Assembly: GCA_963716925.1 (NCBI GenBank)
Contig: CAVQUX010000006.1
Span: 445,388 to 509,387, forward strand
From: an uncultured Acidobacteriota bacterium
Lineage (GTDB): Bacteria > Acidobacteriota > Vicinamibacteria > Marinacidobacterales > SMYC01
Reading direction: 5' to 3'
Length of the DNA stretch: 64,000 nucleotides
Shown here: positions 25,089 through 56,286 of the stretch, one piece after another
Layout of the letters: each line of letters starts with the position of its first letter
Numbering within the stretch: position 1 is the first letter of the stretch
Made by a program: the position numbers and the translations under genes
Notes under the pieces: generated by a model
Told to the model about the DNA's origin: nothing
Databases searched by the model: none
What the model saw: the letters and a program-made list of their open reading frames with translations, nothing else

Positions 25089-26093
25089 ATGAAGACACCT
25101 CGTTTCGCACGATGGTTTCTCGGTCTTCCATTGTTCATTGCGACCTCCCTCGACGCCGCTCCCGGTTACCAGTACTTCGTCGCCGGCAATCCCGCGGACG
25201 TGACCACCCCGACGAGCGGTCTCCTAGTGCTCCAGGGTGGCGGCACGGACGTCGACCAGAACTTCATCGCCATGGGGGAGCGCTCGGGCGGAGGCGACTT
25301 CGTGGTGATCCGGGCCTCGGGAACGGACGCTTACAATCCGTACATCCTCGAGCTCTGCGGCTGCGATTCGGTCGCGACCATCATCTTCAAGAACCACAAC
25401 GCATCCTTCAACAGGTTCGTCATCGATACCATCCGGAACGCCGAGGCTCTCTTCATCGCCGGGGGAGACCAGTCCGACTACGTGAAGTTGTGGAAAAATA
25501 CGCCCATCGAAGACGCGATTCATCACGTCGCCGCGAAGCCGGCACCCGTCGGCGGGACGAGCGCCGGAATGGCCATCATGAGCGAGTTCCTGTACTCGGC
25601 GATGAGCAACAGCAGCTTGACGTCCGAGGAAGGCCTGTCCGATCCGTTTCACCGCGACCTGACCCTGGACCGCGACTTTCTCGCGCTCCCGAAGCTCCAG
25701 GGAACCATCACCGATCAGCACCTGCAGGAGCGCGACCGGATGGGCCGCACCGTCGCGTTTCTCGCGCGCCTGGTGAAGGATGGATGGACCGCGGAGGGCC
25801 GGGCGATCGCCGCCGACCGGGAGACCGCGCTCCACGTCGACCCGGTGGATGGATCGTCGGAGGTCTTCTCGACAGCCGCGCATCCGACGCCCTTCGTGTA
25901 CTTTCTCCGGACGCCCGGTCCGCCTGAAGTCTGCATTCCGGAAACGCCTCTGACCTATCGCAACGTCGCCGTTTACCGGATCGGTCCCGGCGGAACGTTC
26001 GACCTGCACCGTTGGCGCGGAACCGGCGGAATCCACTACACCTTGACCGCGGAAAACGGGGTTCTCACCTCGTCGAACGGCCAGATCTACTGA
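25089..26093 (+). CDS. secreted peptidase S51 / cyanophycinase-like protein
   Basis: Signal peptide MKTPRFARWFLGLPLFIATSLDA. Also LVLQGGG, FIAGGDQ and the nucleophile motif GGTSAGMAIM. Confidence 0.75.
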   Translation: MKTPRFARWFLGLPLFIATSLDAAPGYQYFVAGNPADVTTPTSGLLVLQGGGTDVDQNFIAMGERSGGGDFVVIRASGTDAYNPYILELCGCDSVATIIFKNHNASFNRFVIDTIRNAEALFIAGGDQSDYVKLWKNTPIEDAIHHVAAKPAPVGGTSAGMAIMSEFLYSAMSNSSLTSEEGLSDPFHRDLTLDRDFLALPKLQGTITDQHLQERDRMGRTVAFLARLVKDGWTAEGRAIAADRETALHVDPVDGSSEVFSTAAHPTPFVYFLRTPGPPEVCIPETPLTYRNVAVYRIGPGGTFDLHRWRGTGGIHYTLTAENGVLTSSNGQIY

Positions 26094-29000
26094 AGGCCGA
26101 TCCGGTCCGTCCGGAACGTTTCCGCGGAAACCTCCCCTCCAGGTCTGTTTACCACCAACTTCGTAACCCACAGGTAGAACGTGGGGAGCGCCAGGAGGGT
26201 GAACGCGGTCGAGGTGACCAGACCTCCCACCATCACGATCGCCAGCGGCCGCTCGATCTCCGTTCCATGGAGCGGAAGCAGGAGAAGCGGCAGGAGGCCG
26301 AGGGTCGCCGTCGCGGCGGTCAGAAGCTTCGGTCTCACGCGGCCGATGCTCGCCTCCCGGAGTGCGTCCTCGAACGGCCGTCCATCGGCCGCGAGCGCGC
26401 GGGTCTGGGAGACCAGCACCAGTCCGTTCTGGACGGCGATGCCGAAGAGCCCCATGAGGCCGACGAGAGACGAAACGTTCCAGGTCTCACCGGCGAGGAA
26501 GAGCGCCAGAATGCCTCCGACGAAAGCGTCGGGGAGAGTCGCCAGGATCACCAGCGTCTCAGCCACCGAGCCGAGGGCGAGGTACAAAAGAATGAATACC
26601 GCGGCCACGGCGACCCCGATGGCCACGGCGAGGGATCGGCCGGCGCGCTCCTGGCTCTCCACTCTGCCGGCGACGTCGAAGAAGTAGCCGGCGGGAAGCT
26701 CGAGACTCGCGACCAGCCGTCGGCGGACTTCTCCGGCGACGCTTCCGAGGTCCCGCCCTGAAACTCCGGATTCGATCGCGATTCTCCTCGTCCCCGCCTC
26801 GCGCCGGATGACGCCGGGCCCGAAGCCCTCCTCGACCCGGGCAAGCTGCTCCACGGGAATCCGCGTCCCGTCGTGTCCGTGGAGCAGAAGAGAGCGAATC
26901 GCGGAGACGCTCCCGCGTGCCTCGTCGCCGAGTCGCACGACGAGGTCGAAGCGCCGCTGGCCGACCCATATCTCCGACGGCTCCGCCCCGGCGAGAGCGA
27001 CCCTCACCGCGGTCACCACGTCCCCCGGCGTGAGCCCGACGCGGGCGACTGCCGGCCGATCCACCGCAACCTGGATCTGCGGCTGGCCTACGAGCTGCTC
27101 CACGCGGAGGTCCGTGACCCCCTCGACTTCCGCAAGGATCCGACCGGCCTCGCGGCCGAGCTCTGCGAGGCGATCGAGGTCCGGGCCGAAGATGCGAACG
27201 GAGATATCGGCCGGCGTTCCCCCGAGGCCCTCGTCGATGCGCATGCCGAGAGGGGTTGTGAAGAGCACCGACACTCCAGGTATGCTCTTTAGCGCCTCGC
27301 GCATCTCCTCCTCGATCTGCTCGAGGCCGCGCGCGCGATCTCGCTTCAGGATCACGAGAACGTCCGAAAGGGTGTGGGGCATGGGATCCTCGGTGCGCTC
27401 CGCCCGGCCGGTCCGGCGCACGACGTCCTCGACCTCCGGAATTCCACGGAGCGCGTCCTCGACCCGGTGGTTCACGCGGTCCACCTCGTCGAGGGAGGCC
27501 TCGCTCGGAAGAACGGTCTGTAGTAGAAGCGCGCCTTCGTCGAGACGCGGCATGAAATCAGTCCCCAGTCGAAAGGCGAGCACGATCGCGGGGACGGTCA
27601 ATGCGAGCGAAGCCACGCGGACCGCGGCACCGTGGCGGAGCGCGCGGTCGAGCAGAGGCGCGTACCCCGCCTTGATGCGCCGCAGCAGGCGAACGTCCTC
27701 AGGGTGATCCGCGGGAGGGGCGCGAAGCACGCGGGCACCCACGGTCGGCACGAGAGTCAGCGCCAGAAGAAGCGAAGCGGAGAGCGTCGCGATGACCGCG
27801 GCCGCCAGGGGCCGGTACATGCGCCCTTCGATTCCGGTCATCGCGAAGAGCGGAAGGAAGACCGCGATCACAATCAGCGTCGCGAAGGCGATCGGCCGGG
27901 CGACTTCGGAGGCGGCTCGAAACACCGTCTCCCGCCGCGGCCGGTCGCGATCCGTTCTCAACCGGTGGACCGCGTTCTCGGTCACGATGATCGCGGCATC
28001 CACGAGAAGACCGACGGCGATCGCGAGACCGCCCAGGGTCAGGGTGTTGAGTCCGACTCCGAGCGGCCGCAGCAGGAGCCCGGCGAGGGCGACCGAGAGC
28101 GGAAGGGTGAGGGTGACGAGGAGGGCCGCGCGCGCGTCGCCGAGGAGGAGAAAGAGGACGGCGACGACGAGAACCGCACCCACCAGGACCGCCCTCCCGA
28201 CTCCGCTGAGAGCGTCGTTCACGAGCTGGGATTGGTCGTAGACGACCCGCACTTCGATTCCCGCCGGAAGCGATCGCCTCAGGTCCTCGATCGCGCCGCG
28301 CAGGTTCGCCGCGACCCGCACCGTGTCCGCGCCGAACTGCTTGACGACGCGGCAGCTCACCACCTCGCCCCGCAGGCGATGGGCGATTCCGCGGCGAATC
28401 GCCGGCGCCTCCCGGACCTCCGCCACGTCGCCGAGGAGCACCGGAGCTCCGCCCCGAATCGCGACGACCGTCGACCTCAGGTCCTCGACCGAATCGGCAC
28501 GGCCGATGGCGCGCACGACCCACTCGATGGAGCCCTGGGTGATGAAGCCGCCCGCGGCGTTGAGGTTCGCCCCCTCCGCCGCGTGCAGGACTTCGTCGAG
28601 CGTCACGTTTCGCGCCGACATCCGGTCGGGATCGAGCTGCACCTGGAACTGGCGGAGGTAGCCTCCGAGCCGCTCCACCGCGGCGACTCCGGGAACGGCG
28701 AGAAGGCGGTTCCTCACCTCGAACTCCGCGAAGTCGCGAAGCGTCATCAGGTCCGCGGCGCCTGGCTCGGCTTCGAGGGTGAACTCGAAGATCTCGTTCA
28801 ACCTTCCCGTGAGGCTCGAGAGAAGCGGCGTCTCGGTGCCGGGAGGAAGCCCTGGAGTCGCCTGCCCCAGGCGCTCGGCCACGAGCTGGCGGCTCAGGAA
28901 GTAGTCCGCGTCGGGCTCGAACTCGACGGTGATCTGGGAGACGCCCATTTGAGACGACGAGCGAACGCGGCGGACCTCGGGCAGACCCGCGAGAGCGGTC

Positions 29001-29206
29001 TCGATGGGGATGGCGACCGCGGTCTCGAGCTCCTCCGCTCCCATCGCTTTGTTCTGGACGATGACGTTGAAGATGGGGATCGAGAGATCGGGAAAGACGT
29101 CTCGCGGAAGATCCCGGAGCCAGAGCGCGCCGAGAGCGGCTCCGGCCAGGACGAGGACGACGGTGAGGGCGGGCTTTCGAAACGACGCGCGCAGGAGGGA
29201 ATCCAT
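26087..29206 (-). CDS. heavy-metal efflux RND transporter, CusA/CzcA family
   Basis: 1039-aa intact ORF with 12-TM RND architecture and family-typical segments (IPIFNVIVQNKAMGAEELE, LGGLAIAVGLLVDAAIIVTENA). Confidence 0.9.
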   Translation of the reverse strand: MDSLLRASFRKPALTVVLVLAGAALGALWLRDLPRDVFPDLSIPIFNVIVQNKAMGAEELETAVAIPIETALAGLPEVRRVRSSSQMGVSQITVEFEPDADYFLSRQLVAERLGQATPGLPPGTETPLLSSLTGRLNEIFEFTLEAEPGAADLMTLRDFAEFEVRNRLLAVPGVAAVERLGGYLRQFQVQLDPDRMSARNVTLDEVLHAAEGANLNAAGGFITQGSIEWVVRAIGRADSVEDLRSTVVAIRGGAPVLLGDVAEVREAPAIRRGIAHRLRGEVVSCRVVKQFGADTVRVAANLRGAIEDLRRSLPAGIEVRVVYDQSQLVNDALSGVGRAVLVGAVLVVAVLFLLLGDARAALLVTLTLPLSVALAGLLLRPLGVGLNTLTLGGLAIAVGLLVDAAIIVTENAVHRLRTDRDRPRRETVFRAASEVARPIAFATLIVIAVFLPLFAMTGIEGRMYRPLAAAVIATLSASLLLALTLVPTVGARVLRAPPADHPEDVRLLRRIKAGYAPLLDRALRHGAAVRVASLALTVPAIVLAFRLGTDFMPRLDEGALLLQTVLPSEASLDEVDRVNHRVEDALRGIPEVEDVVRRTGRAERTEDPMPHTLSDVLVILKRDRARGLEQIEEEMREALKSIPGVSVLFTTPLGMRIDEGLGGTPADISVRIFGPDLDRLAELGREAGRILAEVEGVTDLRVEQLVGQPQIQVAVDRPAVARVGLTPGDVVTAVRVALAGAEPSEIWVGQRRFDLVVRLGDEARGSVSAIRSLLLHGHDGTRIPVEQLARVEEGFGPGVIRREAGTRRIAIESGVSGRDLGSVAGEVRRRLVASLELPAGYFFDVAGRVESQERAGRSLAVAIGVAVAAVFILLYLALGSVAETLVILATLPDAFVGGILALFLAGETWNVSSLVGLMGLFGIAVQNGLVLVSQTRALAADGRPFEDALREASIGRVRPKLLTAATATLGLLPLLLLPLHGTEIERPLAIVMVGGLVTSTAFTLLALPTFYLWVTKLVVNRPGGEVSAETFRTDRIGLQ

Positions 29207-29208
29207 CT

Positions 29209-30378
29209 CTAGTGCTCGTGCGCATCGCCCGCGCCGCGGGCCTTGTCCGCCTCGGCTTTCAGCAGAAAGGCGCCTTCGACCACCACCGTCTCGCCGGCCG
29301 AAAGGCCGGAGACCACCTCCATCTCACCCCCGAGGTCCCGGCCCCGTCCGACGGTGCGGATCTCGAAAGCCCCCGCTTCACGCGGGAGGAACACCACCCA
29401 GTCGTCCTCGACCCTCTGCATGGAGGCGGCAGGCACCGCGACCACGGAAATGCCGTCCCCTCCGAGATCGATGGCGGCCGTCGCCGACATGCCGGGCCGG
29501 AACAGGCCATCGGGGTTCTTCAGCGTGAGCCGGATCGGCACGGTGCGTGAATCGGCGTCGACCTGGAGGCCGACCTGATCGACCCTGGCCTCGAACGTTC
29601 TTCCGGGAAGCGCCGGGAACGTGACGCGCGCCAGGGCACCCACGCGAACCCGGGCCGCGTCGCGCTCGAAGGCTTGCACCACCAGCCAGAGCGTCTCGAG
29701 AGCCGCGATCTCGAAGAGGGGCTGCGAGGGGTCAGCCTGCTGCCCCACCACCGCCGTTCGTTCGAGCACCACGCCCGCGAGCGGGGAGCGGAGCTCGAAG
29801 AGCGAGGGATCGTCACCCTCGGACTTCGGCGCCGCTCCGAGCGAAGCCAGCGAGGCGCTCGCGGCCCGGAGCTCGGCATCGGCGGCTTTCATATCCGCCT
29901 CAGCTTGCTCGACTTCCCGCCGGGACGCGATGCGCTCGGACGAGAGCGCTCTCTTGCGATCGAGCGTCTGGCGAGCGAGCTCCACCCGCGCTTCCGCGCT
30001 GATGTGCTCGGCACGGGCCCTTCCGAGCTCTACGCTCCGGAGCTCGACCAGGATCTCCCCCCGATCGACGCGCTCGTTCGAAGCCGCGTGCAGCCGAATC
30101 ACCTGCGCCGGGATCGGCGAAGCGACTTGCGCGTGATGGTTCGCGTCGACCCGGAGCTCTCCGAGCATGGAGGCTTCGTCCGCGCCGCGATGCGCCTCCA
30201 CCTGGAGCGTCGTGATCTTCAGGTCTCGAAGCATGTCCGGTGCGATCCGTAGAAACCCCTCAGGATCGTCCGCGCCTTCCTCGGCGCCACTCTCTTCGAT
30301 CGACCCTTGTTCGACGGGTCGCTCCCTCGGACCGCAAGCGGGAAGCAAGAGGAGAAGGAAACCGCTCCATCGGCTCAT
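29209..30378 (-). CDS. efflux RND periplasmic adaptor (membrane fusion protein)
   Basis: 389 aa. A lipoprotein-like N-terminus (LLLLLPACG), a coiled-coil hairpin and beta-barrel regions. The gene starts 2 nt before the RND pump gene. Confidence 0.85.
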   Translation of the reverse strand: MSRWSGFLLLLLPACGPRERPVEQGSIEESGAEEGADDPEGFLRIAPDMLRDLKITTLQVEAHRGADEASMLGELRVDANHHAQVASPIPAQVIRLHAASNERVDRGEILVELRSVELGRARAEHISAEARVELARQTLDRKRALSSERIASRREVEQAEADMKAADAELRAASASLASLGAAPKSEGDDPSLFELRSPLAGVVLERTAVVGQQADPSQPLFEIAALETLWLVVQAFERDAARVRVGALARVTFPALPGRTFEARVDQVGLQVDADSRTVPIRLTLKNPDGLFRPGMSATAAIDLGGDGISVVAVPAASMQRVEDDWVVFLPREAGAFEIRTVGRGRDLGGEMEVVSGLSAGETVVVEGAFLLKAEADKARGAGDAHEH

Positions 30379-31604
30379 GGCAGCACCCCCGCGGCGAGCT
30401 CGAAGTCGACGGCAGCGACAGCGAGCTCGAGCTCTCGCTCAATCGTCAAGACCCGCACCTCGAGCGCGTCCCGGCGCAGGAGGAAATACTCGAGAAGCCC
30501 GATTTCTCCCGCCTCGTAGCTCCGCGCGGCGAGAACCTCGTTGTCCGAGACGGACGGGAGCGCGCCAGCCGTCATCGCCTCAGCCGCGTCCGATCGTTCG
30601 CGGTAGACCTCGTATGCCGTCTGCAGCTCGGCCGCGACCGCAGTGCGAGCCCCCGCGAGCTCCAGCGCGAGGCGGCGGCCGCGCGCCTCAGCTTCTGCGC
30701 GACGGGCTTCGCCGGTCGCGGTCCAGGGAAGTGCCAGAATCCCCCCGAACCGGACGACGTCGCTCCCTTCCTCGCGCTCGTAGTCGACGCTCACCCCTAC
30801 GTCGAGGCGGCCTTCCGCACCGCCGAGGCGCTCCTCCGCCTCCGCCCCGCGAACCTCGGCGGCGAAGGCGCGGAGCTCGGGGCGCTCCGCCGCGCGGGCG
30901 AGGATCTCGTCCGCAACGAGTCGGCCGTGCTCCGAGAGGTCGCCTTCGAGGAGGATCGGGATCTCGCTCGCGATCGCGAGGAGAGATCGAAGACGCCCTT
31001 CCGCCGCGAGCTTCTCCGCCGAAGCCTCCGCGAGAGCAGCCCTCGTACGGGCCTCGGCGATCCGGGCGAGGTTGAGGTCGATGGCCCCGACGTCTCCGAG
31101 CTCGAACCGGCGTTCGGTGGCCCGCCGGAGCTCCGCCGCGTCGTTCAGAGTCTCGGTCGCGAGGGAGAGCCGGTCCCTTGCCGCGAGTCCGCGAAGGAAC
31201 GCCGAGCCGACGTCGCGCAGCTCCCGGCGGAGCGCGATCTCGCTCGCTGCGGTCTCGCGATCGATATCCGCCTCCGCCGAGGAAATGCGGGCGCCGCGGT
31301 GGCCGCCGACCTCGAAGAGCTGCTCGAAGCCGACGTCGACGTCCACGGTTCCGCTGTCCGGGCCGTCGCGCGGTCCCGCGGAAGCCGCTACCGCCGGCCG
31401 CGCCCGAAGACGCGCTGCGGCGCCGATACGCCGCGCCCGGGCTTCCTCGATCCGGGCGCGGGCCGCGAGGACCGAGGGCGCGCTCTCGCGCGCCCTTCGA
31501 AAAGCGGACTCGAGGGTCAGGATCTCCTGGGCTCCCCGGGTCGGCGCGGGCACCGCCACAGAGAGAAGAACCACCGCCAGAACGAAACACGATCTTCGGG
31601 ACAT
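30375..31604 (-). CDS. TolC-family outer-membrane efflux protein
   Basis: 409 aa with a signal peptide and two repeated Ala/Arg/Glu-rich helical halves. ATGA overlap with the adaptor gene. Confidence 0.8.
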   Translation of the reverse strand: MSRRSCFVLAVVLLSVAVPAPTRGAQEILTLESAFRRARESAPSVLAARARIEEARARRIGAAARLRARPAVAASAGPRDGPDSGTVDVDVGFEQLFEVGGHRGARISSAEADIDRETAASEIALRRELRDVGSAFLRGLAARDRLSLATETLNDAAELRRATERRFELGDVGAIDLNLARIAEARTRAALAEASAEKLAAEGRLRSLLAIASEIPILLEGDLSEHGRLVADEILARAAERPELRAFAAEVRGAEAEERLGGAEGRLDVGVSVDYEREEGSDVVRFGGILALPWTATGEARRAEAEARGRRLALELAGARTAVAAELQTAYEVYRERSDAAEAMTAGALPSVSDNEVLAARSYEAGEIGLLEYFLLRRDALEVRVLTIERELELAVAAVDFELAAGVLP

Positions 31605-31652
31605 AACACTCCTGTTTCTTCGTGCCGGCCGAGGCCGGCGGATTGCGAAGCG

Positions 31653-31955
31653 TCAGGAGAGTTTCGGTATGTGCAGGATTTCGCTCGGAAGAGGAGGAGG
31701 CAGGGACGGGTCACGCGCCACGCAAACGCCCGCGGGAAGGAGGAGCGCGCCCGGCAAAGGAGCGACAGCCGCTATCGTGAGTGGCTGGCGCAAGCAGCAG
31801 GCGCAGAGGAGACAGCCTCGCTCGCAGTCGTCGTCCTCACCGCCGCCCATCTCGTTCACGGCGGAAGCGCACTCGTCGGGAAGGAGAATCGCGTAGGCTC
31901 CTGAAGCACCCAACGTCGATGCGATCAGAACGAGCGCCGCCGCCGAGCGAGGCAT
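31653..31955 (-). CDS. small secreted Cys-rich protein (100 aa)
   Basis: Signal peptide MPRSAAALVLIASTLGASGAYA, followed by DECASAVNEMGGGEDDDCERGCLLCACCLRQ. Ends 48 nt upstream of the efflux operon on the same strand. Confidence 0.45.
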   Translation of the reverse strand: MPRSAAALVLIASTLGASGAYAILLPDECASAVNEMGGGEDDDCERGCLLCACCLRQPLTIAAVAPLPGALLLPAGVCVARDPSLPPPLPSEILHIPKLS

Positions 31956-32039
31956 GGGGTTATTCTAACGCACATGCGAGCGGCCTTTCCGCTCCTCCTC
32001 CTCGTCTCCGGATGCGCGCCGAGTTCGGTCGTAATGAAT

Positions 32040-32063
32040 CAGGCCGTTTCCATGACCGGCCTG
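32040..32063 (-). terminator. candidate stem-loop downstream of the tubulin-like paralogue
   Basis: CAGGCCG-N10-CGGCCTG (7-bp stem), 60 nt past the stop at 32123. The downstream tract is only weakly U-rich. Confidence 0.25.
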
Positions 32064-32122
32064 ACGTCCTCGCTGAACCCGAGAACTTCCAGCACTCCTG
32101 GCTCCCTCTTTTCCGGGAGGGC

Positions 32123-34216
32123 CTAGGCCTCCGGGCTCTCGTGCCGGTCGAGAGACGCGTACTGCCGCAGCGCGCGGAACGGGAGGTTGTACAGCTCCAT
32201 CAGCTGGAGCGCCTGGAACGGCAGGTTCTTGACCACGAACACGTCCGAGAGGTCGATGCCGTCCCTCTTGCGCGTCGTGCCGAGGGAGCTCGCGAGGGTC
32301 TCGTCCTTGTGGCAGAGGAACATCGCCTGGCGGTAGGCCGCCTGGGGATGCTCCTTGTACTTCATGTCGAAGATGGAGTTCACCTGGGCGTCGGCGATGT
32401 CCTGCAGAATCCTTACGACTTCTCGATAGTCGACCTTCATCTCCGAAACGACTTTCTCGATCGCCGGGCGGGCTTCGAGACGGATGGCTTCCATTAGACC
32501 CTTTTCGGCTTCGTCGAACGACAACGCCGGGTCGGGAAGCCACTTCTTGAAGAAAAAGCTCTCCATGACCTTCGATAGCGAGTCCTCGGAGGCGGTCTTC
32601 CGCACCTCCTCGATCTTCCGCTCGATCTCCTTGTCCAGCAGGCGCTGGCGAAAGACCTGGTTGAAGACGTAGAGGTAGAGCTCGCGCCGCCTCAGGTACG
32701 CGTCCCGCCTCTGGTGCAGATGGGCAAGAAGAGCGGGGCGCTTCTTCAGGAGATCCGCGAAGGTGTGGTGGATGCGGTCGTAGCTCTCGCGCAGACGGCT
32801 CTCCAAATTCGCCTCGCCCGCGAGCCCCTCGACCGCGCTCAAGGCGATCGACTTCTCCAGAATCTCCCGAATGCTGATCCTGGAGAAGACGTCCTTCACC
32901 TTCGCTTCGGTGTCGCTTCCCTTCTTCAGCTTGGCTCCGCGATCCGAGGCCACCTGTTTCAGCTCCGTCACCTTCGATTCGATGTCCGAGCGGATGCGCT
33001 TCCAGTCGGAAGTGAGCTGCTGCGCCGTGCCGCTCCGATGGTCGAGAAGCTGCTGGACTCGGAAGAACGCCTGAGTGAACAGGGAGTCGATTTCCGCGAG
33101 GTCGAGACCCGCGGCGCCCGCGGTGAGGGCGTCCCGGATCCGGTCGGGCACCTGAAGAATCATCTCGAGAGCGAGGTCCCGCACTCTCCCTGCGAAGCGG
33201 CTGCGCTCGTGGTCGAGCTGGGAGAGGAATCGCTGGAGGTAAGCGTCGGGCGGCGCCGACATCTCGATGTCGTACTTCGCGAGGACATCGATGGCGGCGA
33301 GGTCGAACCAGCGCTCGTTCTCGAGCGAGTGCCGCACGACCTCCTGGAGGAGCTGGGTGAGCTTCGCCGCATGGGCCCTGGCGAGAAGCGGTTCCACCAT
33401 CTTTTCGACCTTCCCCGGTGCCGGAGGACCCGAGGGGAAGAACTTCTCGCACAGGCGGATCATCAGCAGGTACTCCATCTCGTCCCGCACCATCTGCTGG
33501 ATGGAGGGAAGGAACGAGAGCGCCGTTCCCGAGATCGGAGCGAACCCCTGTCCCGCGGGAAAGCCCCGGTAGAACTCCTGTACGCCTTCGCTCGCGCTGA
33601 TGCGCTCCGGCAGGAGGACGAGATCGAAATAGACCTTGGTCGCCGCCGCCTGCCCCGAGACCTCCATATCGTCTTCGTCGAGGGACTCGCAGTAGCAGAA
33701 GACGACGTCTTCGAACGGAGGGCCGGAGATCGAGGGCAGGCTTCGCTTGAGGTCGGGGTAGCGCGGCTGGAAGGGCTCCTTGAGCGACGCATGGCTGTCG
33801 ATCTCCTCGAGCACCTTCCGCGTCGCTGGCAGCCACGCGTAGGCGCTCTCGGGAATAATCGTGGGAAAGGCGGTCAGCACCTTGATGCGCGGGCTCAGGA
33901 TGATGTTCTCGCGAAAGAAGCTCTTGAAGAGATAGCCGAGGTGCATCAGGTTCGAAGCCATGTGCTCCTCGACGAGAAGGCCCACCAGGTAGACGGTCAA
34001 AGGGGTGTTGGCGAAGTTGAAGACTTCGCGGTTGAGGAGCCCGAGGAGCCGCTCCCGATACGGGAGGTACGACTCAGCCACCGGTTTTCCCCCATCGATC
34101 TCGAGCTGGTGGTAGACGATGTTCCTCTCGATGGGGAGCGCCTTGACGCGCTCGATGACCGAGCTTCCGAACCCGCCCAGGCCGACGACCAGGTACTGGC
34201 TCAGAGACTGATCCAT
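32123..34216 (-). CDS. tubulin-like paralogue lacking the GTP-binding signature loop
   Basis: ATG 34216 overlaps the upstream stop (ATGGATCAGTCTCTGA); 697 aa. The N-terminus YLVVGLGGFGSSVIERV aligns with VIVLGVGGTGMKTL of the upstream gene. At the signature-loop position it reads VYLVGLLVEEHMASNLMHLGYLF, so there is no GGTG. The C-terminal half is long, helical and charged. Confidence 0.7.
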   Translation of the reverse strand: MDQSLSQYLVVGLGGFGSSVIERVKALPIERNIVYHQLEIDGGKPVAESYLPYRERLLGLLNREVFNFANTPLTVYLVGLLVEEHMASNLMHLGYLFKSFFRENIILSPRIKVLTAFPTIIPESAYAWLPATRKVLEEIDSHASLKEPFQPRYPDLKRSLPSISGPPFEDVVFCYCESLDEDDMEVSGQAAATKVYFDLVLLPERISASEGVQEFYRGFPAGQGFAPISGTALSFLPSIQQMVRDEMEYLLMIRLCEKFFPSGPPAPGKVEKMVEPLLARAHAAKLTQLLQEVVRHSLENERWFDLAAIDVLAKYDIEMSAPPDAYLQRFLSQLDHERSRFAGRVRDLALEMILQVPDRIRDALTAGAAGLDLAEIDSLFTQAFFRVQQLLDHRSGTAQQLTSDWKRIRSDIESKVTELKQVASDRGAKLKKGSDTEAKVKDVFSRISIREILEKSIALSAVEGLAGEANLESRLRESYDRIHHTFADLLKKRPALLAHLHQRRDAYLRRRELYLYVFNQVFRQRLLDKEIERKIEEVRKTASEDSLSKVMESFFFKKWLPDPALSFDEAEKGLMEAIRLEARPAIEKVVSEMKVDYREVVRILQDIADAQVNSIFDMKYKEHPQAAYRQAMFLCHKDETLASSLGTTRKRDGIDLSDVFVVKNLPFQALQLMELYNLPFRALRQYASLDRHESPEA

Positions 34217-37163
34217 CGTCCCTCCGAGAGCGCCTGGCCGAGGTTGAAGATCCTCCGCTTCTCCTGATCGTCCAGAGCCGAGCTCTCCTTCTCGACGAAA
34301 GCCAGGACCTCCCGTCCGAGCTCGCGGGGGCTCTCCTTCCTCTCCCCGAGCCTTTTCGCCATCGAGTCGAACGCGGCGCGCACGGCGCCCGAGAGCTCCG
34401 CCTCGGGCGAGTGATAGTTGTCGAGGATCGAGCCGATGTCGGGTCCGAGCTTGCACGCTCGGGGGAAGGTTCAGCTTCAGATCGGCGTCGGCGCGGAACA
34501 GGAACGTCTCCTCCTGAGGGCTCCAGACGATCCAGCCGCTCGCGAACGAGAGATAGAAGTGGTCCTTGAGGCGTTCGAGCGTTTTGTTGGGAAGCGCCTC
34601 CTTCAGGTCGTAGAGCTTCGTCGGACCGAACATGTGGATCTTCTCGTGGCCGAGGAGGTGATTGCGGTAGATCCCCGCGGAGTCGCTGATGAGGTGGAGG
34701 AGGCTCGAGGCGGTGAACCCGTGGTAGAGGGACAGGAAGTGGATCTCGTGGCGCCCCGCCATGTGGCCGACGCTCGTCCCCTCCGGAAGCGACTCGAGAA
34801 TGGACCGCTTCAGGCAATTATCGTATTTGTCGCACTCCGCGTCCGATCGGACCGGGCAGCGGTTCAGGATCTGCTCGCAGGGCTTTCCGGTGTAGGTATT
34901 GGGGATGGCGATGAACCGCGCGGCGTTGTGCTGCTCCGAGAAGCCGTACTTCGAGGCGTCGACGGTGTCGAGCACCACGAACGGACGGGAGAAGTTGAGC
35001 CAGGTCTTGATCTGGGTGTTCATGTCCCCGAGCGCCGTCACCCGTTCGTCGAGGGAGGACTGGTCCATCACTGCGGAGAAGCGCTCCCCCACCGCCTGGA
35101 AGAGACGCCGGAAGCTCTCGTCCAGACTCAGCGTCTCCAGGCCGTCGAGGTCCGTACCCAGAACCTCCTCGGTGTGGATCTTCTTCCGGGCTTCGTCCCG
35201 CCCTCCCCGGCTTACCTTCACCTCCTGAATCACGGGCTCGACGTCGCGGTGGTAGTCGAACGCCACCTTGTAGAACTCGCCGTCGGCCACCGAGTGGCGG
35301 GTCTTCTCGATGTCCAGGATCCGCTCCTTCAGCTCCTTGAGGACCGCCACTTTCTTCAGATAGGACTCGCGCTCGCGAACCAGAGTCGCCTCGGCGCCGG
35401 TGCGTACGTCCGTCTCCGCGGCCGAGGGCTCGCCGCGAAGGACGAGGAGGGCGTTTCGGAGCACCACCGCCCTGCGCTTCTGGAGCCAGTAGTTCTCGAG
35501 GATCTCCCGGGTCTCGCCGATGAGCGCCGCCATGTTCTTCTTGACCGTCATGAGGCTGAAGAGGCTCTTGGAGGACGCCGTTTGCCGCAGCTTCAGGAAC
35601 TGGTTCTCGAGCGAGCTCTTCAGGCCCGGAAGCTGCTTCTCCGTCTGCTGGGCGAGCGTCTCGATCGCCTGGACGTCCTCGTGGACCTGGCGGTACAGGG
35701 CCTCGACGAAGAGGTGCACCTGGCGGACGCTCCCGCTCTGCGGCGGGATCGGCGAGCTTCTGGATCTCCGCCTCGAGGTGCGTGCGGAGGTCGCGAAGGA
35801 TGCTTCACCGCCTCTCGACGCGAGTCGGCTTCGAAGAGAGCCAGATCGGTGGTCGAGAAACGGGTGTCGTACTCCCGAAGGAGGGCTTCGTGGCTCTCCG
35901 GCGGCTCGCTCGCGAGGTCGATGTTGGCCACCGTCGAGCCGATGGTGTCCTGGATGTTGACCCTGCTGCCCGGTCGAGTCGGTGTAGAACGACAGGGTTT
36001 GCAGGATCTGCGGCGACTGGTTGCTGAAGTGAACCTTGTTGGCCGTGAGGAATGCATCCGAGGCCTTGTCCAGATCGCGCTCGGCGGCGGCGGTGACCAG
36101 CTCCTGCTCCACCACGTCGAGGGCCAGGTCGGCGGCGGCGAGCTGGACCGCTACCGACTTCGGGAAAGACCACCGAGTAGTAGCCGAAGGACGAGTAGCA
36201 GGTGGGCTTGTTGAGCATCCGGTTGACCCCGCGGATCTTGGGGTTCAGGTTGTTGTCGATGCTGTTGTAGTCCTGGGTCAGCTCTCCGCAGACCATGAGG
36301 TAGATGTAGCGGGCCATCATCTCGTAGACCTGGGAGGAGGAGATGTTCACCCGGCCGTTGCTGTTGTCGAACACGAAGACCCGGTCGAAGGGAGCGAAGC
36401 CGTAGCTCTCGCTCGCCTCCACGTAAGGATAGTCGGTCTTGAACGCGAGCCCGGGATCCATGTACACGTCCTTGTTCATGAAATGATCGAGCTCTTTCAT
36501 CGAAGCGTAGGCGTTCGAACGAATCCTCTCGGTGCCCTGGCTGATGTCGGAGAAGACGCTGGGAAGCGCGAGAAGGCCGCAGACCTTGGTGTTGAAGCGG
36601 TTCCACTTCCTCTTCCAGAGGTTGGTCAGGGTGTAGGCGACGTCCAGGAACATCCCCGCGCCCGTACCGCCGCAGACCGAAGTCACCACGAACACCAGAG
36701 GGTCGTCCACCTGATGGACCTCGAGCTTCTTCAGGAGCTTGGAGTCCACCATGCCGCGGAGGGGCTCGACGAGCTTCAGGAACTTCCCGAAGTTCCAGGC
36801 GAAGAGCAGCCGGCCGAGCGACTTGTATTGCTTGCATCCCGTCGAGAGGTCGGGGATGAAGTACTCGAGCTCGCGAGGGAACCAGCTCTTCGCCCGGTCG
36901 AGGTCGTCGTAGCCGACGTTTCCGGGGATCTCGAGCTTCAGATATTCGTTCGTGGGGTCGAGCGAGATCTCGGAGACGGGTATCGACGCGTCGGGCGATG
37001 CCGTGGGGCGGATGAGGTCGTCGGAGTCGATGCACAGAAGACGCAGTGCGGGGAGATCCCGCATTCCACCGGGCCGGTTGAGGGCGATCATCTTCTTGAG
37101 CTGGAGAAGGGTTTTCATCCCCGTTCCCCCGACTCCGAGAACGATAACGGGTGTTACTGGCAC
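34201..37163 (-). CDS. large tubulin/FtsZ-like GTPase domain protein (Tubulin_2-like; frame interrupted five times)
   Basis: GTG 37163 with GGAG 8 nt upstream. Motifs are VIVLGVGGTGMKT (T1-like), VVTSVCGGTGAGMFLDVA (compare the tubulin signature GGGTGSGM), LLALPSVF and VFVFDNSNG. A protein-like reading continues to TGA 34201 only if the frame is changed at about 36165, 35965, 35805, 35730 and 34465. The total is about 987 aa. Confidence 0.7.
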
Positions 37164-37174
37164 TGTGGTCGCTC

Positions 37175-38683
37175 CTAACGGAAATCCACCCCGCCCGGCG
37201 ACGTCGGCCTGGGCGCCGAGGGGACGGGCCGCGGCTTCACCGGAGTCGCCTTCTTCTGGAACCGCACGAACCGGACGATCTTTCGCCCGCCCTCCGCGGT
37301 GCTCACCTCCACGGCGTCGCCGAGGCTGTACTCCGGGAGGGTCGGGACGAGGTCCGGTTTCGACGAGACGAGCGCGAACGAATCGACCGACCTCCTCTCG
37401 AGTACCGCCACCTTTTGAGGCAGTCCCACGAGGCGAAATCGATCGGAGGCGCCTCCGCCCAGGCTCGAGTGGCCATGGATGCGGAAGGGGACGGGCCGCA
37501 TGGACGAAGCTTCGCCCTCGACCACCATGGTCACGGGAATGGGACGCCTGCGGTGGAAGACGAGCCCGAGGGCGCCGAAAGCGAGCGCCGCTCCCCCTCC
37601 TCCGAGCGCGAGCCCGTAGCGCTCCCAGAACGAGGGAACGTGGAACGTGAAGCTCGCCTGCGGTGGGTAGAACTTCACCGCGCTCGACTGGTCGAAGCTC
37701 ACGCTCGCTTCGAAGTCTCCCGAGGGGAAATCGGGCGGGAGCGCGACCCGGATGGCGAAGCTCCCCTCCTGGCGGGGCAGGAGCGCCCAGCGAGGCTCGC
37801 CGCCGAGGCTCGCGGTCGCCGACAGGGCTTCCTCACCGGTGCGAGCGGCGAGTCGCCTCAAGCCGGCCACCGTGACCCCCGCTACATGCACCTCACGTTC
37901 CTGCTCTGATGTCGACTGCAGGCGTACGTCGAGGGCCATCTCTTCACCCGGAAGACAGGGCTCGTCCGGGCCCGAGAGCCCCGCGAGGTTGATGGTGTCG
38001 TCCCAGAATCGCGAGAGGCCTTTCGCCAGCTCCTCGGAGTTGAACTCCTTCAGGAGGGTGTACCCGGCGCCGAGTGCCTCTCCCAGCTTTCGCGCGTCGG
38101 TGACCGTCCCGATTCCGACGACGTGAGTGCGGAATCCCTGCTCCGACAGTCTTTTCACCTGAGCGAGGAACTTCTCGCTGAAGTCGGAGGTCGGGGGAAG
38201 GCCCTTCCCCGTATCCCGCTTCACCGGCGCGAAGTAGGGGCTCTCCCGCGGGGGATGGTTCACGCCGTCGGTCAGGATCAGGACGACCTGCTGGTGCGAA
38301 GGATCGGAGAGGCGCTCGAGCTGCTTCAACGCCTCCTCGAGCGCCCGGCCCATGTCGGTATACCCCTGCGGCACGACGTTGAGAGTGCGGACGAGCTCCC
38401 CCAGGTTCTCTTTCTCCGCCTCCGACGACAGTCTCTGGCTCACGCGGATGCGGGCCTCGCTGCTGAAACCGACGACGCAGAGGTAGTCTCCGGGCTCGAG
38501 GTAATCCCGAACCAGCGCCTCGGAAACGAAGGTCGTGACTTTCGAGAAGATGGGCTTCATGCTGCCCGATTCGTCGAGCACCAGGAACACGTCCACGTTT
38601 CCCGCGCGCTCTCGAGCGCCGATAGCGAGCTCGGGGGCGAGCGCCAGGAGCGCGATTCCGAGAAGCAGTCTTCGTCCGATCAC
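37175..38683 (-). CDS. bitopic von Willebrand factor A domain protein
   Basis: An N-terminal hydrophobic segment, then MIDAS DESGSM and later LILTDG. A second TM (YGLALGGGGAALAFGALGLVF) is followed by HRRR and a C-terminal domain of about 110 aa. The start is either GTG 38683 (7 nt after the flotillin stop) or GTG 38728. Confidence 0.8.
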   Translation of the reverse strand: MIGRRLLLGIALLALAPELAIGARERAGNVDVFLVLDESGSMKPIFSKVTTFVSEALVRDYLEPGDYLCVVGFSSEARIRVSQRLSSEAEKENLGELVRTLNVVPQGYTDMGRALEEALKQLERLSDPSHQQVVLILTDGVNHPPRESPYFAPVKRDTGKGLPPTSDFSEKFLAQVKRLSEQGFRTHVVGIGTVTDARKLGEALGAGYTLLKEFNSEELAKGLSRFWDDTINLAGLSGPDEPCLPGEEMALDVRLQSTSEQEREVHVAGVTVAGLRRLAARTGEEALSATASLGGEPRWALLPRQEGSFAIRVALPPDFPSGDFEASVSFDQSSAVKFYPPQASFTFHVPSFWERYGLALGGGGAALAFGALGLVFHRRRPIPVTMVVEGEASSMRPVPFRIHGHSSLGGGASDRFRLVGLPQKVAVLERRSVDSFALVSSKPDLVPTLPEYSLGDAVEVSTAEGGRKIVRFVRFQKKATPVKPRPVPSAPRPTSPGGVDFR

Positions 38684-38690
38684 GAAAGTC

Positions 38691-40213
38691 CTACTTCTTC
38701 GGAGGCTCCTCCTTCGGCGGGCTCTCACGCAGATGGTCGAAGAGCTTCTCCATGTTGAGACCGGTCAAGGACTCGACCACCGGCGGCACCTGGGTGATCA
38801 CTTTCGCGATCTCGTTCGTCACCCGCGAGATTCCCGAATCCCCGTTTCCGGTGTTCACCAGGGTGATGCGATCGATCTTGGAAAGGGGCTCGGCGATGGC
38901 GCGGGCGATCTCGGGGAGGATGGGCGCGAGAATCTGGAGGACGGCGGCCTCGTTGTACTTCTTCCAGGCCTCGGCCTTCTTCTCCATCGCCAGCGCCTCG
39001 GCGAGGCCCTGCGCTTTCTGCGCTTCGGCCGCCGCGAGACCCTTCGCCTGCTGAATCTGGGCCTCGGCGATACCCTTCGCCTTGTTGACCTCCGCCTCGG
39101 CGGTGCCGTAGGTCTGCTTCACTTCGGCATCGGCGAAACCCTGGCTCTTGGTGGCCGCCGCCTGGTTCTCGACCCGCTTCAATTCGGCGGCGGCCAGAGT
39201 CTCGATCTCGTACCGCTTGGCGTCGGCCTGGCGCCTGATGGTGGCGTCGAGCTCCTTCTCCCGGCGCAGGATCTCCTGCTCCTGGACCTGGATCTCTATG
39301 GTCTTCTTCTGGAGCTCGTAGGCCATGTCGGCGTCGGCCTTCTTCAAGTTGGCCTCGCGCTGCTGCTCGGCGATGGCCTGCGCCGCCTGGGAGTTCGCGA
39401 CCTCGGACGCGCGGTGCGCCGTCCGCCTGCGCCTCCGCCTGGCGCCGGTTCTTGTCGGCTTGCGCCTCCGCGACCGCGGCGTCGCGCTTGGCTTCGGCCT
39501 CCTGGGCGAGCTTCGATGCTTCGGCCTGCCGCTCTCGAGTCTCGCGCTCCGCGTCGGCCTGGGCGACCATCGACTCCTTGGTCGCGACGGCTTCGGCGAT
39601 GGCGGCGGTGCGCTTCACCTCCGCGATAGCCGCCTTTCCCAGAGCCTCGAGGTAGCCGTGCTTGTCGCGGATGTCGCGGATGGTGAAAGAGTCGATGCCG
39701 AGGCCCATGTTGCGCAAGGTCGCCGGCGGAGATCTCCTGGACCTTCTGCGCGAACTGATCGCGGTTCTTGTAGATGTCCTCGACGCTGAGAGTGCCCAGG
39801 ATCGCGCGCAGGTGGCCCTGCACCGTCTCGAGAGCGATCTTGGCGATCTCCTGAGGCGGCTTGCCCAGGAAGCGCTCGGCGGCGGCATGGAGTGACGCTT
39901 CGTCCTTCTTGATCTTGATCTGGGCGACGCCGTCCACCATGATGGGAACGCCCTGCGAGGTGTAGACCTCGGGGGTGGTCACGTCGAGGGTCATCACCTC
40001 GAGCGACAGGCTGTTCCAGGTATGGAACAGCGGGATCACCATGTCGGCGCCCCCGGTGATGAACTTCACCCTTCCTCGGCCCGAGACCACGATGACCTCG
40101 TTCGGTCCCGCTTTCTTGAGAAAAGCGAGGTAGGTGAGGATGTAGCCAACCACCGCGATGGCAATCACCGCGAGAGCGGCCAGCAAGAGCACGTTTCCGA
40201 AAATGAGCTCCAT
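38691..40213 (-). CDS. flotillin / SPFH (band 7) family protein (frame interrupted twice)
   Basis: N-terminal TM plus an SPFH domain (PNEVIVVSGRG...MVIPLFHTWNSLSLEVMTLDV...PIMVDGVAQIKI). An Ala/Glu/Gln-rich flotillin repeat region and the C-terminus (ILAPILPEIARAIAEPLSKIDRITLV) follow in successive frames. Shifts are at about 39715 and about 39425. Confidence 0.85.
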
Positions 40214-40230: not shown

Positions 40231-40851
40231 CTAAGAACCCGAGTTCGATTCCACGAGGAGCGTCGATCCCACCATCCTCAGCACCTTCACCTGGGCGCCT
40301 CTCGGAACCTCTCGTCCCTGGGCTTCCCGGGCGGGAGCGGTGTACCGCTGTCCGGACACGAGCGCCGCAACCTCACCCAGGCCCTCTTTGGGAATGGGGG
40401 TGATTACTTCGGCGTAGACCCCGACTAGGTCCTGGAGGCGAATCTGGCTCGAGCCGCGGGAGCTCCCCACGATCCGCCAGCCGGCGTAGGTGATGAGGTA
40501 GGCGGTGACGACCGCCGCCGGGATGGCGGCGAGAATGCTGGCGGTGTCTTTCGCGCGAAAGCCGTAGAGCGCGATGAGTCCGTAGCCGCCGATGCAGGCG
40601 AAGAGCGTCGCCAGCGCGAGAGGCGAGAAGAACGGAAAATGGAACTCGGCCGCGTGGGGAGCGTGGGCCGAAGCCGAGGCGTGGCCGCCGGCATCGACCC
40701 CGTAGTCCATGTGTGCGTCCCCGTCATGAGGGCCGTGGTGGCCGGCATCGCCATGACCCTCCCCCCCGAGGTCGGAGTGTCCCAGGAACACCGACAACAG
40801 GAGGTAGCCCGCCCCAAGGACGGCGAGGGCGAGATAGGTGAGGGTCAGCAA
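40231..40851 (-). CDS. NfeD-family membrane protein (YqiJ-like)
   Basis: TTG start with GGAGAGGAAG upstream. TM helices, a His/Asp-rich loop, and a C-terminal NfeD OB-fold pattern (GVYAEVITPIPKEGLGEVAALVSGQRYTAPA...VKVLRMVGSTLLVE). Lies 17 nt upstream of the flotillin gene. Confidence 0.8.
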   Translation of the reverse strand: MLTLTYLALAVLGAGYLLLSVFLGHSDLGGEGHGDAGHHGPHDGDAHMDYGVDAGGHASASAHAPHAAEFHFPFFSPLALATLFACIGGYGLIALYGFRAKDTASILAAIPAAVVTAYLITYAGWRIVGSSRGSSQIRLQDLVGVYAEVITPIPKEGLGEVAALVSGQRYTAPAREAQGREVPRGAQVKVLRMVGSTLLVESNSGS

Positions 40852-52176: not shown

Positions 52177-52337
52177 TTCGCACCGCCTCAAAGCGGGAAC
52201 CGCGGACGCCGAACCGTCCCCGCTCACGAATGTTGTTCTGTCAGCGCCCCTCTACAGAGAATCGCGGAAAAGAACGTCTTTTTTTTCAGGTCTGTCGAGA
52301 GGAATTCGAATCTGCCTCAGCGAGATACCTGGCCGCG

Positions 52338-53495: not shown

Positions 53496-53657
53496 TTCGC
53501 ACCGCCTCCATGCGGGGAACCGTGGACGCCGAACCGGTCCCGCCGATGAATGTTGTTCCGTCAGCGCCCATCTACAGGGAATCGCGGAAAAGAACGTCTT
53601 TTTTTCAGATCTGTCGAGAAGAAGTTCGACTCTGCCTCAGGGAGACATCTGGCCGCA

Positions 53658-54827: not shown

Positions 54828-54992
54828 TTCGCACCGCCTCAATGCGGGAACCGTGGACGCCGAAACCGGTCCCGCTGACGAATGTTGTTCTGTCAGCGCC
54901 CCTCTACAGGGAATCGCGGAAAAAGGACGTCCTTTTTTTCAGGTCTGTCGAGAAGCAGTTCGACTCTGCCCCAAGGGAGAGACCTGGCCGCA

Positions 54993-56153: not shown

Positions 56154-56286
56154 TTCGCACCGCCTCACTGCGGGAACCATGGACGCCGAACCGTTCCCGC
56201 TGACGAATGTTGTTCTCTCAGCGCCCCCTACAGGGAATCGCGCAGAAGGGCGTCCATTTTTTCCAGACCCGCGGGAATTTTTTTGG

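Follow-up and report, generated by a model that had tools for sequence, protein, structure and literature searches.

A GTP-signature-less partner protein, remotely related to FtsZl1, encoded directly beside an FtsZl1/Tubulin_2 GTPase gene in an acidobacterial operon

Do two neighbouring genes of an uncultured acidobacterium encode a pair of tubulin-like proteins of which only one handles guanosine triphosphate (GTP)? The question is raised by a stretch of 64,000 nucleotides (assembly GCA_963716925.1, contig CAVQUX010000006.1, positions 445,388 to 509,387; hereafter the window), in which gene A (34201..37163) is followed by gene B (32123..34216), both on the minus strand. An earlier note on this DNA had read the two as adjacent paralogues, one keeping the GTP-binding signature and the other having lost it. 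The family concerned, FtsZl1 (Pfam Tubulin_2, PF13809), ranks among the tubulin superfamily's most divergent branches. We find that the feature is real and that, as far as sequence can tell, both the homology and the loss of the GTP signature had been read correctly. Coordinates are those of the window, and every gene of the locus lies on its minus strand.

Remote homology between two neighbouring proteins

Gene A runs from a GTG start at 37161-37163 to a TGA stop at 34201-34203 and encodes, once its reading frame is corrected as described below, a protein of 985 aa. The protein matches Pfam Tubulin_2 with 171.2 bits (gathering cut-off 27; E 5e-50) over residues 7-351 and profile positions 1-355 of 356. 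Both nucleotide loops are intact: T1 is GVGGTG (37119..37136) and is invariant in the family alignment, and the T4 signature is GGTGAG (36654..36671). The inserts between T1 and T4 that have been described as specific to FtsZl1 (PMC2875224) are present, the FtsZ-like domain lies at the N-terminus, and the total length compares with the ~1000 aa of the FtsZl1 architecture. The single hydrophobic segment of the protein (residues 155-173) corresponds to the buried strand that runs into T4. From its sequence, A is a divergent FtsZ-tubulin GTPase of the FtsZl1/Tubulin_2 family with both nucleotide loops intact.

Gene B is one intact open reading frame (ORF) of 697 aa, and the relationship of its N-terminal alpha/beta domain (residues 1-260; 33437..34216) to A is carried by profile comparisons. 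With hhalign, the signal grows with the diversity of the Tubulin_2 profile. A profile of 8 sequences gave E 9e-4 (probability 23%); 112 N-terminal sequences placed B 71-281 on A 153-375 (E 3.1e-5, probability 73%, score 43.6), with a second collinear piece placing B 5-32 on A 3-30 (E 2.2e-4); and 92 full-length sequences placed B 74-294 on A 156-391 (E 2.8e-6, probability 88%). Real comparisons scored 43.6 and 61.1, and the 21 controls run for the former (one reversed and 20 column-shuffled templates) reached top scores of 10-21, with a maximum of 21.3; the profile alignment of the two N-terminal domains that the earlier note had proposed as a check stands above its shuffled controls. At a low alignment threshold, a collinear match joins B 3 to 219 with A 1 to 317. 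The register passes through strand 1/T1, strand 4/T4/helix 4, strand 5 and strand 6 and is the same as the one previously drawn by eye, whose four motif pairs are all in the sequence; a fifth landmark, SGTALSFLP in B against SSFGYYSVVFP in A, is followed by a helix. A self-built hidden Markov model (HMM) of the Tubulin_2 N-domain, run with HMMER, matched B at a single-comparison E of 8e-8 and six of its homologues at 1e-4 to 5e-3, and it found two collinear pieces in each of the B orthologues of the related loci L015, L016 and L022. A word-indexed search with the N-domain of A alone returned 12 mostly fragmentary matches, and an alignment query was used instead. These alignments, together with the AlphaFold and Foldseek results and the synteny with A presented below, tie B to the FtsZl1 GTPase domain: on profile evidence, the N-domain of B is a very remote homologue (paralogue) of that domain in which the T4 glycine loop has been lost.

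The loss is accompanied by conservation of what has taken its place. At T1, B carries a remnant, GLGGFG (34166..34183), in which G12 and G17, and very nearly F16, are invariant; the pattern of the B family is G-[LIV]-x-x-[FY]-G, with an aromatic residue in place of the Thr of GGTG. The T4 position is occupied by GLLVEEHMA (33956..33982), which has no glycine run and in which G79, E83 and H85 are nearly invariant and A87 is invariant. The stretch from T1 to T4 measures ~150 residues in A and contains the family-invariant G..Q....L (conserved as G..Q..GRL), whereas in B it measures ~67 residues and lacks the motif. The strand landmark VLTAFPTIIPE (33848..33880) is kept. The earlier statement that B keeps the fold landmarks without the Gly-rich loop is borne out as remote homology at the profile level, with both the T4 loop and the T1-T4 segment lost. 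Because these two elements are gone and T1 is only a remnant, canonical GTP binding by B is very unlikely. B nevertheless appears to be a constrained protein rather than a relic, since the replacement residues are conserved and the mean column identity across the family is 67%; the ratio of nonsynonymous to synonymous substitution rates (dN/dS) is 0.068. The 45 homologues of B (48-93% identity) come, wherever a source is named, from metagenome bins of Vicinamibacteria/Acidobacteria.

Structure prediction is in line with the profiles. An AlphaFold2 model of B 1-345, built with 29 homologues, has a predicted local distance difference test score (pLDDT) of 72, and its core, residues 1-210, forms a five-strand alpha/beta domain at 80-94. 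The top Foldseek match of this N-domain model in the PDB is TubZ (2xka_F; E 1.7e-3, probability 1.00, query TM-score (TMq) 0.35, 255 columns), with other TubZ chains at probabilities of 0.96-0.99; in BFVD the geometrically best matches are two phage proteins, an FtsZ (probability 1.00, root-mean-square deviation (rmsd) 4.7 A, TMq 0.38) and, at a probability of 0.99, a tubulin. In the full-length model (pLDDT 85.7, predicted TM-score (pTM) 0.68), the N-domain is followed by an additional strand at 228-236, a stalk built of many helices of 15-30 residues each (residues 270-613; 32378..33409) and C-terminal strands at 629-678. These strands lie within a beta-rich segment (residues 629-690; 32147..32332) that contains the nearly invariant LPF..L.....YNLPFRALRQY. 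Foldseek matched this model to FtsZ (8gzv_A, 283 columns, target TM-score (TMt) 0.41; 6y1v_A, rmsd 4.3 A) at a probability of 0.99. MxA and ClyA-type toxins, which head the full-length list, are long-helix proteins with TM-scores < 0.2 and were regarded as uninformative. In the three Foldseek searches, the tubulin-family matches had the highest TM-score, the longest alignment and probabilities of 0.99-1.00. The structural evidence, drawn from predicted models, is consistent and points to the tubulin/FtsZ superfamily, and it is weak in E-value. Two details proposed earlier do not survive: in place of a long coiled-coil tail, the model of B shows an internal helical stalk and a chain that ends in beta strands, and a role for B as a direct membrane adaptor is at odds with a hydropathy profile that contains no hydrophobic segment.

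Of the two adjacent genes, only B is intact in the window. When the three minus-strand frames are translated, the protein-like reading of gene A switches frame five times, and alignment to L005 (92% DNA identity, A intact) places extra single bases at 36157, 35966, 35801, 35741 and 34454, with a sixth just 5' of the start at 37166. Removal of the five extra bases restores 985 aa with no stop codon in the corrected frame; orthologues of that same length occur in L004, L005 and L006, and L001 has one of 984 aa and L002 one of 986 aa. The dN/dS of corrected A against L005 is 0.087, compared with 0.076 for an intact orthologue pair. Four of the six insertions in or next to A immediately precede a CA dinucleotide (GCAG, GCAG, GCAA, ACAG). 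A Viterbi track of codon-position GC content yields further candidate breaks at 4431, 4781, 15684 and 20525, in unrelated genes, and at 39418 and 39717, in the flotillin gene of the same operon; these switches stay on the same strand, with no stop codon nearby. This pattern suggests that the window sequence carries indel errors in general, and the five breaks of A are probably sequence errors rather than gene decay, because the corrected dN/dS is unrelaxed and unrelated genes of the window are broken as well. Programmed frameshifting in A was set aside, as it would take five separate +1 events, each absent from close relatives. In L007 (contig CAWGBY010000003.1, 10001-15038), which shares 84% DNA identity and 12.8 kb of synteny with the window, A and B are both frame-broken. 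The truncated database protein P0034 may derive from the L007 contig, and some entries of the family are fragments.

Inheritance of the pair and its reach among distant loci

The A/B junction (34201..34225) contains a GGAGGG Shine-Dalgarno sequence (34220-34225), the ATG of B (34214-34216) and, 13 nt downstream of that ATG, the TGA of A (34201-34203). The overlapping stop and start codons noted earlier are real and amount to 16 nt, ATGGATCAGTCTCTGA (34201-34216). The same overlap and Shine-Dalgarno sequence occur in 8 of 10 junctions (the window, L001, L002, L004, L005, L015, L016 and L022), and the more distant L006 and L020 have a short spacer between A and B instead. All contigs found via B carry a Tubulin_2 gene of 982-986 aa directly upstream, and all contigs found via A that are long enough encode B downstream. 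A gene for a von Willebrand factor A (vWA) protein precedes A wherever the contig reaches, and NfeD and flotillin genes precede the vWA gene in most loci, although not in L002. On this evidence, the two genes are inherited together and linked in translation. The gene directly after B in L001 (12123-13442) encodes a kinase.

How far does the pairing extend beyond this clade? The expectation that homologous loci encode both copies held for every A-orthologue locus that reached far enough; for the wider FtsZl1 family the answer is mixed. Six distant Tubulin_2 loci were inspected singly. In four of them (L009, L010, L011 and L013) a vWA gene lies upstream and the downstream gene is large and unannotated, and the two without a vWA gene are also without such a downstream neighbour. 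The neighbour in L010 is itself Pfam Tubulin_2, with altered loops (GLGPLG and GGLGDSAGSG); the one in L011 has no recorded Pfam match and reads ALDPFA at T1 and SSSDAFAAGS at T4. With our own Tubulin_2 HMM, three proteins in the partner position are clearly Tubulin_2: those of L010 (2.4e-44), L011 (5.5e-17) and L074 (4e-15). Of the 80 loci that a metagenome scan then yielded, 68 are distant (25-36% identity). At E < 1e-3, the N-domain HMM matched 16 of the downstream neighbours in 54 distant loci and none of 49 upstream neighbours. The signature GG[TS]G[SAT]G is present in all 77 FtsZl1 (Tubulin_2) proteins sampled and in none of 58 downstream proteins (those of the 54 distant loci and 4 B orthologues).

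Large downstream genes resemble B at their N-termini. The 54 distant loci have 19 downstream ORFs that reach 850 aa or more; all are partner-type, and 17 of the 19 start, like B, with a hydrophobic strand followed by G-x-G-x-[F/W/V]-G, a pattern that was defined after the data had been seen. Because it was written post hoc, the control sets matter, and no upstream or FtsZl1 protein matches it. The starts seen among the partners include CFGGWG, GLGEFG, GAGDFG and GLGDVG; the remaining two of the 19 have GLGAAG and GLGAAS. All four of the upstream genes tested in distant loci encode exported vWA proteins, and the combination of exported vWA protein, FtsZl1 and motif-less partner with a G-x-G-x-[F/W]-G start is found in ~40% of distant FtsZl1 loci. 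Outside the clade, the FtsZl1 nearest to A is that of L026 (36% identity). The partner encoded in L026 shares the compact N-domain and reads VGDLYEDITSN at the T4 position, where B has VGLLVEEHMASN; in BLASTP the two partners align at E 0.003 over B 9-241. We infer an old partner lineage, with B as its member in Vicinamibacteria. It is the shared motifs and L026 that carry this orthology, because profiles of 21 partners score B lower than does the 112-sequence FtsZl1 profile; single-sequence comparisons are weak. These findings support the notion that B belongs to a wider, unannotated class of partners encoded directly 3' of FtsZl1 in vWA-led operons. The pairing is common and not universal, since in other FtsZl1 subtypes the gene that follows is unrelated and encodes a membrane protein of ~550 aa, one of ~207 aa or a secreted protein of 250 aa.

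Two of these subtypes can be described further. In L059, L066, L068, L070, L071, L073, L080 and L088, FtsZl1 is ~1083 aa long with the T1 sequence LV[IV]GLGGTGKR, and the downstream gene encodes a small conserved protein (179-208 aa; that of L059 is cut by the contig end) with the motif NSFG....G, which by eye resembles a macro-type domain. In L037-L039, L051, L053, L058, L061, L075, L077, L087, L090, L091 and L093, FtsZl1 is ~1050-1124 aa long with T1 [IL]CIG[LI]GGTG.D; the downstream protein of 520-680 aa has an N-terminal transmembrane helix and is not of the partner type, and a gene of ~370-386 aa lies upstream in the 11 loci in which an upstream ORF was called (two are truncated at the contig start).

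The surroundings of the paired genes also differ among distant loci. In L010 (1-7945), a Ser/Thr kinase, a PP2C phosphatase, FHA proteins and a vWA-FHA fusion are encoded upstream of the paired Tubulin_2 genes, a phospho-signalling context. In L009 (1-18177; a metagenome-assembled genome of Chloroflexi, Anaerolineae) and L013 (1167-17148), the triad of vWA, FtsZl1 and partner genes lies inside loci of clustered regularly interspaced short palindromic repeats (CRISPR) and Cas genes. The triad is flanked by RAMP, Csx19 and Cas6 genes in L009 and by Cas6 and an EAD7-SAVED gene in L013, with reverse transcriptase (RT), Cas1 and Cas2 on the other side in both; L013 also has a small GTPase gene. This context fits the association of vWA and tubulin genes with CRISPR loci in Altae-Tran et al. 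2023 (PMC10910872). Elsewhere in the family, Tubulin_2 proteins of ~570-710 aa (P0055, P0117, P0119, P0121, P0132, P0134, P0137 and P0147) are fused to TIR domains (PF13676, PF01582, PF08937), and these fusions suggest that part of the Tubulin_2 family works in immune or conflict systems.

The operon and its surroundings in the window

The locus is a five-gene minus-strand operon, tightly packed between 40851 and 32123, in the order NfeD, flotillin, vWA, A and B. Its first gene (40231..40851) encodes an NfeD-like membrane protein with three hydrophobic segments, whose match to the Pfam NfeD C-terminal domain (E 8e-6) falls under the Pfam cut-off and whose position is kept in relatives. The flotillin / SPFH (Band_7) gene (38691..40213) reads in three frames, with frameshift candidates near 39418 and 39717, and its intact orthologues of 505-519 aa carry Band_7 and Flot. 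The vWA gene (37175..38728; 517 aa; Pfam VWA, E 1.1e-13) ends 11 nt before the start of gene A, an arrangement that is also found in relatives. By hydropathy, its product has a signal or transmembrane segment at residues 14-39, a second transmembrane segment at 372-391 and a cytoplasmic tail of ~125 aa, which places the vWA domain outside the cell and the tail inside, and its metal-ion-dependent adhesion site (MIDAS) motif is intact (DESGS within VLDESGS, 38561-38581). None of the five genes encodes a GAP1-type TRAFAC GTPase, an FNIII protein or an HSP70, and the PADLOC models have no match for A, B or the vWA protein.

The genes flanking the operon were read by eye from their translations, without a family search, and resemble an RND (resistance-nodulation-division) efflux set and prepilin-like proteins. 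On the 3' side of B, the minus-strand region 26087-31604 looks like an RND-type efflux operon whose products would be an outer-membrane factor of 409 aa, a membrane-fusion protein of 389 aa and an RND pump of 1039 aa. Some 520 nt (31605-32122) lie between this operon and B, and the composition track labels 31348-32123 as non-coding. Rfam and tRNA scans of the 64-kb window gave no matches. Farther away, at 51022-56582 on the minus strand, lie four tandem paralogous genes, three of them ORFs of 385-401 aa; the fourth (54993-56582) is listed as 529 aa, and its N-terminal part is not protein-like. Each tandem paralogue has a signal peptide followed by repeats of ~40 aa of the type HAFSWT.SGGMIDLGTLGG..S.A.AVN.RGQVVG. 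This block of 6.5 kb is without the usual coding signature of the window in GC content at third codon positions (GC3) and is labelled non-coding by the composition track, which points to atypical codon usage.

Readings of the pair and comparison with known systems

On balance, though by no wide measure, we consider it probable that a live FtsZl1 protein, A, and a GTP-dead remote paralogue, B, which belongs to the partner class of vWA-led operons, act as one hetero-complex. The two proteins would be made together via the 16-nt overlap, and only A would cycle GTP. The dead nucleotide face of B would then provide a constitutive, nucleotide-independent contact and the live face of A a GTP-regulated one, following the logic of the N-site and E-site of alpha/beta-tubulin. 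Such a complex would lie under the membrane in a flotillin/NfeD microdomain, beside the vWA protein's cytoplasmic tail, and the membrane link would run via that tail or flotillin/NfeD because neither A nor B looks like a membrane-spanning protein. Through its link to an exported vWA protein, a GTP-dependent assembly in the cytoplasm might be controlled by a signal from outside. A bolder version, which we put forward only tentatively, is an obligate heterodimer of FtsZl1 with its motif-less partner. It would polymerise as alpha/beta-tubulin does, with one nucleotide-free structural and one GTP-regulated interface, and would be coupled across the membrane to the exported vWA sensor and, in Vicinamibacteria, to flotillin microdomains.

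A number of results weigh against the hetero-complex of live and dead paralogues. BLASTP of the N-domain of A against B gave a best E of 0.4, with top matches that are not collinear. In Pfam, B has nothing relevant (no Tubulin_2 match at E up to 0.1, and none precomputed for its 45 homologues), and it has no NCBIfam match. An HMM of B residues 1-345, run against 1.84 billion representatives, found the family of B only, with no bridging sequences, and against PDB sequences it matched nothing even at E 10. A full-length B profile gave no hhalign signal with five close A orthologues, so that a diverse Tubulin_2 profile is needed to see B at all. Outside the N-domain, the likeness of A and B is not significant (the C-terminal regions gave E 0.011-0.16, with the beta-rich segment of B against A 803-830, and were not accepted). 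To this list belong the post hoc start pattern, the enrichment of frame breaks in A (5 in 3 kb, against ~6 across the remaining window) and Foldseek E-values of only ~1e-3, with Ras-like and flavodoxin-like folds at similar E and at TMq <=0.30, mostly 0.19-0.26. The tubulin-type longitudinal interface is itself uncertain, as no T7/H7 equivalents were found in FtsZl1 (PMC2875224). The failed BLASTP and database searches, and the matches to RhoA, WrbA, CENP-M and others at Foldseek E 4e-3 to 2e-2, near the value for TubZ, are also what one would see if the N-domain of B were an unrelated Rossmann-like (flavodoxin-like or Ras-like) domain, its landmarks a generic pattern of strand, Gly-loop and helix, and its adjacency to A coincidental. 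We consider this improbable: the hhalign scores are well clear of those of the 21 controls, the two pieces are collinear in the expected register, the N-domain HMM finds downstream and never upstream neighbours, some partners in the same position (L010, L011 and L074) are unmistakable Tubulin_2 proteins, and tubulin-family structures lead the Foldseek matches in TM-score, alignment length and probability.

If B is a true relative of FtsZl1, it need not co-polymerise with A; it could act as a regulator, cap, decoy or effector of an assembly made of A only, possibly in conflict or defence. The related triads in type III CRISPR-Cas / RT-Cas1 loci (L009 and L013) speak for such a role, as do the Tubulin_2-TIR fusions, one solo Tubulin_2 gene that adjoins an integrase and a STAND-like NTPase, the published CRISPR-associated vWA and tubulin genes (PMC10910872) and the passages of PMC7159879 in which tubulin and vWA genes are placed in conflict systems and inactive domains are considered possible decoys. 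The conservation of VE.HMA at the T4 position of B would also suit a new function better than simple loss. Still, PADLOC recognises none of the three proteins, the neighbours in the clade are flotillin and NfeD rather than defence genes, and tight translational coupling suits a stoichiometric partner at least equally well, so we think this role rather unlikely. A last possibility is that the system is decaying in this genome, with A and the flotillin gene real pseudogenes and B an intact leftover. The distribution of breaks would agree with this (five in the 3 kb of A and two in the 1.5 kb of the flotillin gene, compared with four candidates in the ~45 kb of remaining coding sequence, and none in B or the vWA gene). 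We give it little credence, however, since all the breaks in A are +1 single-base insertions, the corrected frame has no stop codon, its dN/dS is like that of intact orthologue pairs, unrelated genes of the window are also frame-broken, and the breakage of both A and B in the L007 assembly points to assembly quality.

Several consequences would follow if the partnership of A and B holds. If the usual partner of FtsZl1 is a GTP-dead copy, reconstitution should express both proteins together, hundreds of "hypothetical proteins" from Acidobacteriota and other bacteria, including the Chloroflexi of L009, could be assigned a fold and a role, and the repeated origin of hetero-paired tubulin-like polymers would become directly testable. 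Across lineages, this module is linked to flotillin or to CRISPR-Cas loci. The obligate heterodimer, if true, would show the principle of the tubulin heterodimer in an independent prokaryotic version of wide phylogenetic spread.

Alpha/beta-tubulin and BtubA/BtubB are the obvious points of comparison. Both are pairs of tubulin/FtsZ-superfamily paralogues, adjacent or co-expressed, that differ in how their subunits handle the nucleotide, and alpha/beta-tubulin has a structural N-site and an exchangeable E-site. In each of these pairs GTP is bound by both subunits and neither has given up T1 or T4, so the analogy drawn in the earlier note is imperfect: B has lost these loops. In addition, neither A nor B belongs to Pfam Tubulin (PF00091) or Tubulin_C, each is likely to have a helical stalk of 300-plus residues, as modelled for B, and a heterodimer of A with B is putative. 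Geometrically, the models of B match TubZ and FtsZ (2xka, 8gzv and 6y1v) best, with probabilities of 0.99-1.00, 229-283 aligned columns and rmsd 4.3-7.3 A, although at 10-12% identity, E 1e-3 to 0.16 and TM-scores of 0.30-0.41; unlike them, B has no GGGTG(S/T)G and carries a helical insertion of 340 residues before its C-terminal strands.

Among gene neighbourhoods, the firmicute GTPase-centred conflict systems of Kaur et al. 2020 (PMC7159879) come close. As portrayed in the passages of that paper on these systems, they contain two tubulin-domain genes with C-terminal coiled coils and a membrane vWA protein, and the extracellular vWA topology of the GAP1-N2 systems is the same as that of the vWA protein here. 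Those passages describe inactive enzymatic domains as frequent in conflict systems, where they may act as decoys, and they include no tubulin copy without GTP loops, whereas the present locus has such a copy and is acidobacterial and flotillin-linked. Altae-Tran et al. 2023 (PMC10910872) associate vWA and tubulin genes with CRISPR loci, and Santana-Molina et al. 2023 (PMC9871819) use the Tubulin_2 group only as the root of an overview tree. In the literature that we found, by a search not covering all journals, there is no GTP-motif-less partner class, no B family and no flotillin link, and no experimental study of FtsZl1/Tubulin_2.

The closest known relatives are the FtsZl1 operons of Makarova and Koonin 2010 (PMC2875224), who defined FtsZl1, its architecture (~1000 aa, with an FtsZ-like domain at the N-terminus, a long coiled coil and an alpha-helical C-terminal domain) and its vWA-containing operons, and who proposed a role in membrane remodelling. 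The likeness lies in the FtsZl1 gene, equal to Pfam PF13809, and its vWA partner. Most other genes of those operons were described as lineage-specific and without recognisable domains, and no inactive paralogue was mentioned. In the present locus, the listed GTPase, OmpA and protein kinase partners are absent and flotillin and NfeD are present, and the downstream gene appears to encode a degenerate FtsZl1-like protein of a kind that recurs across distant loci.

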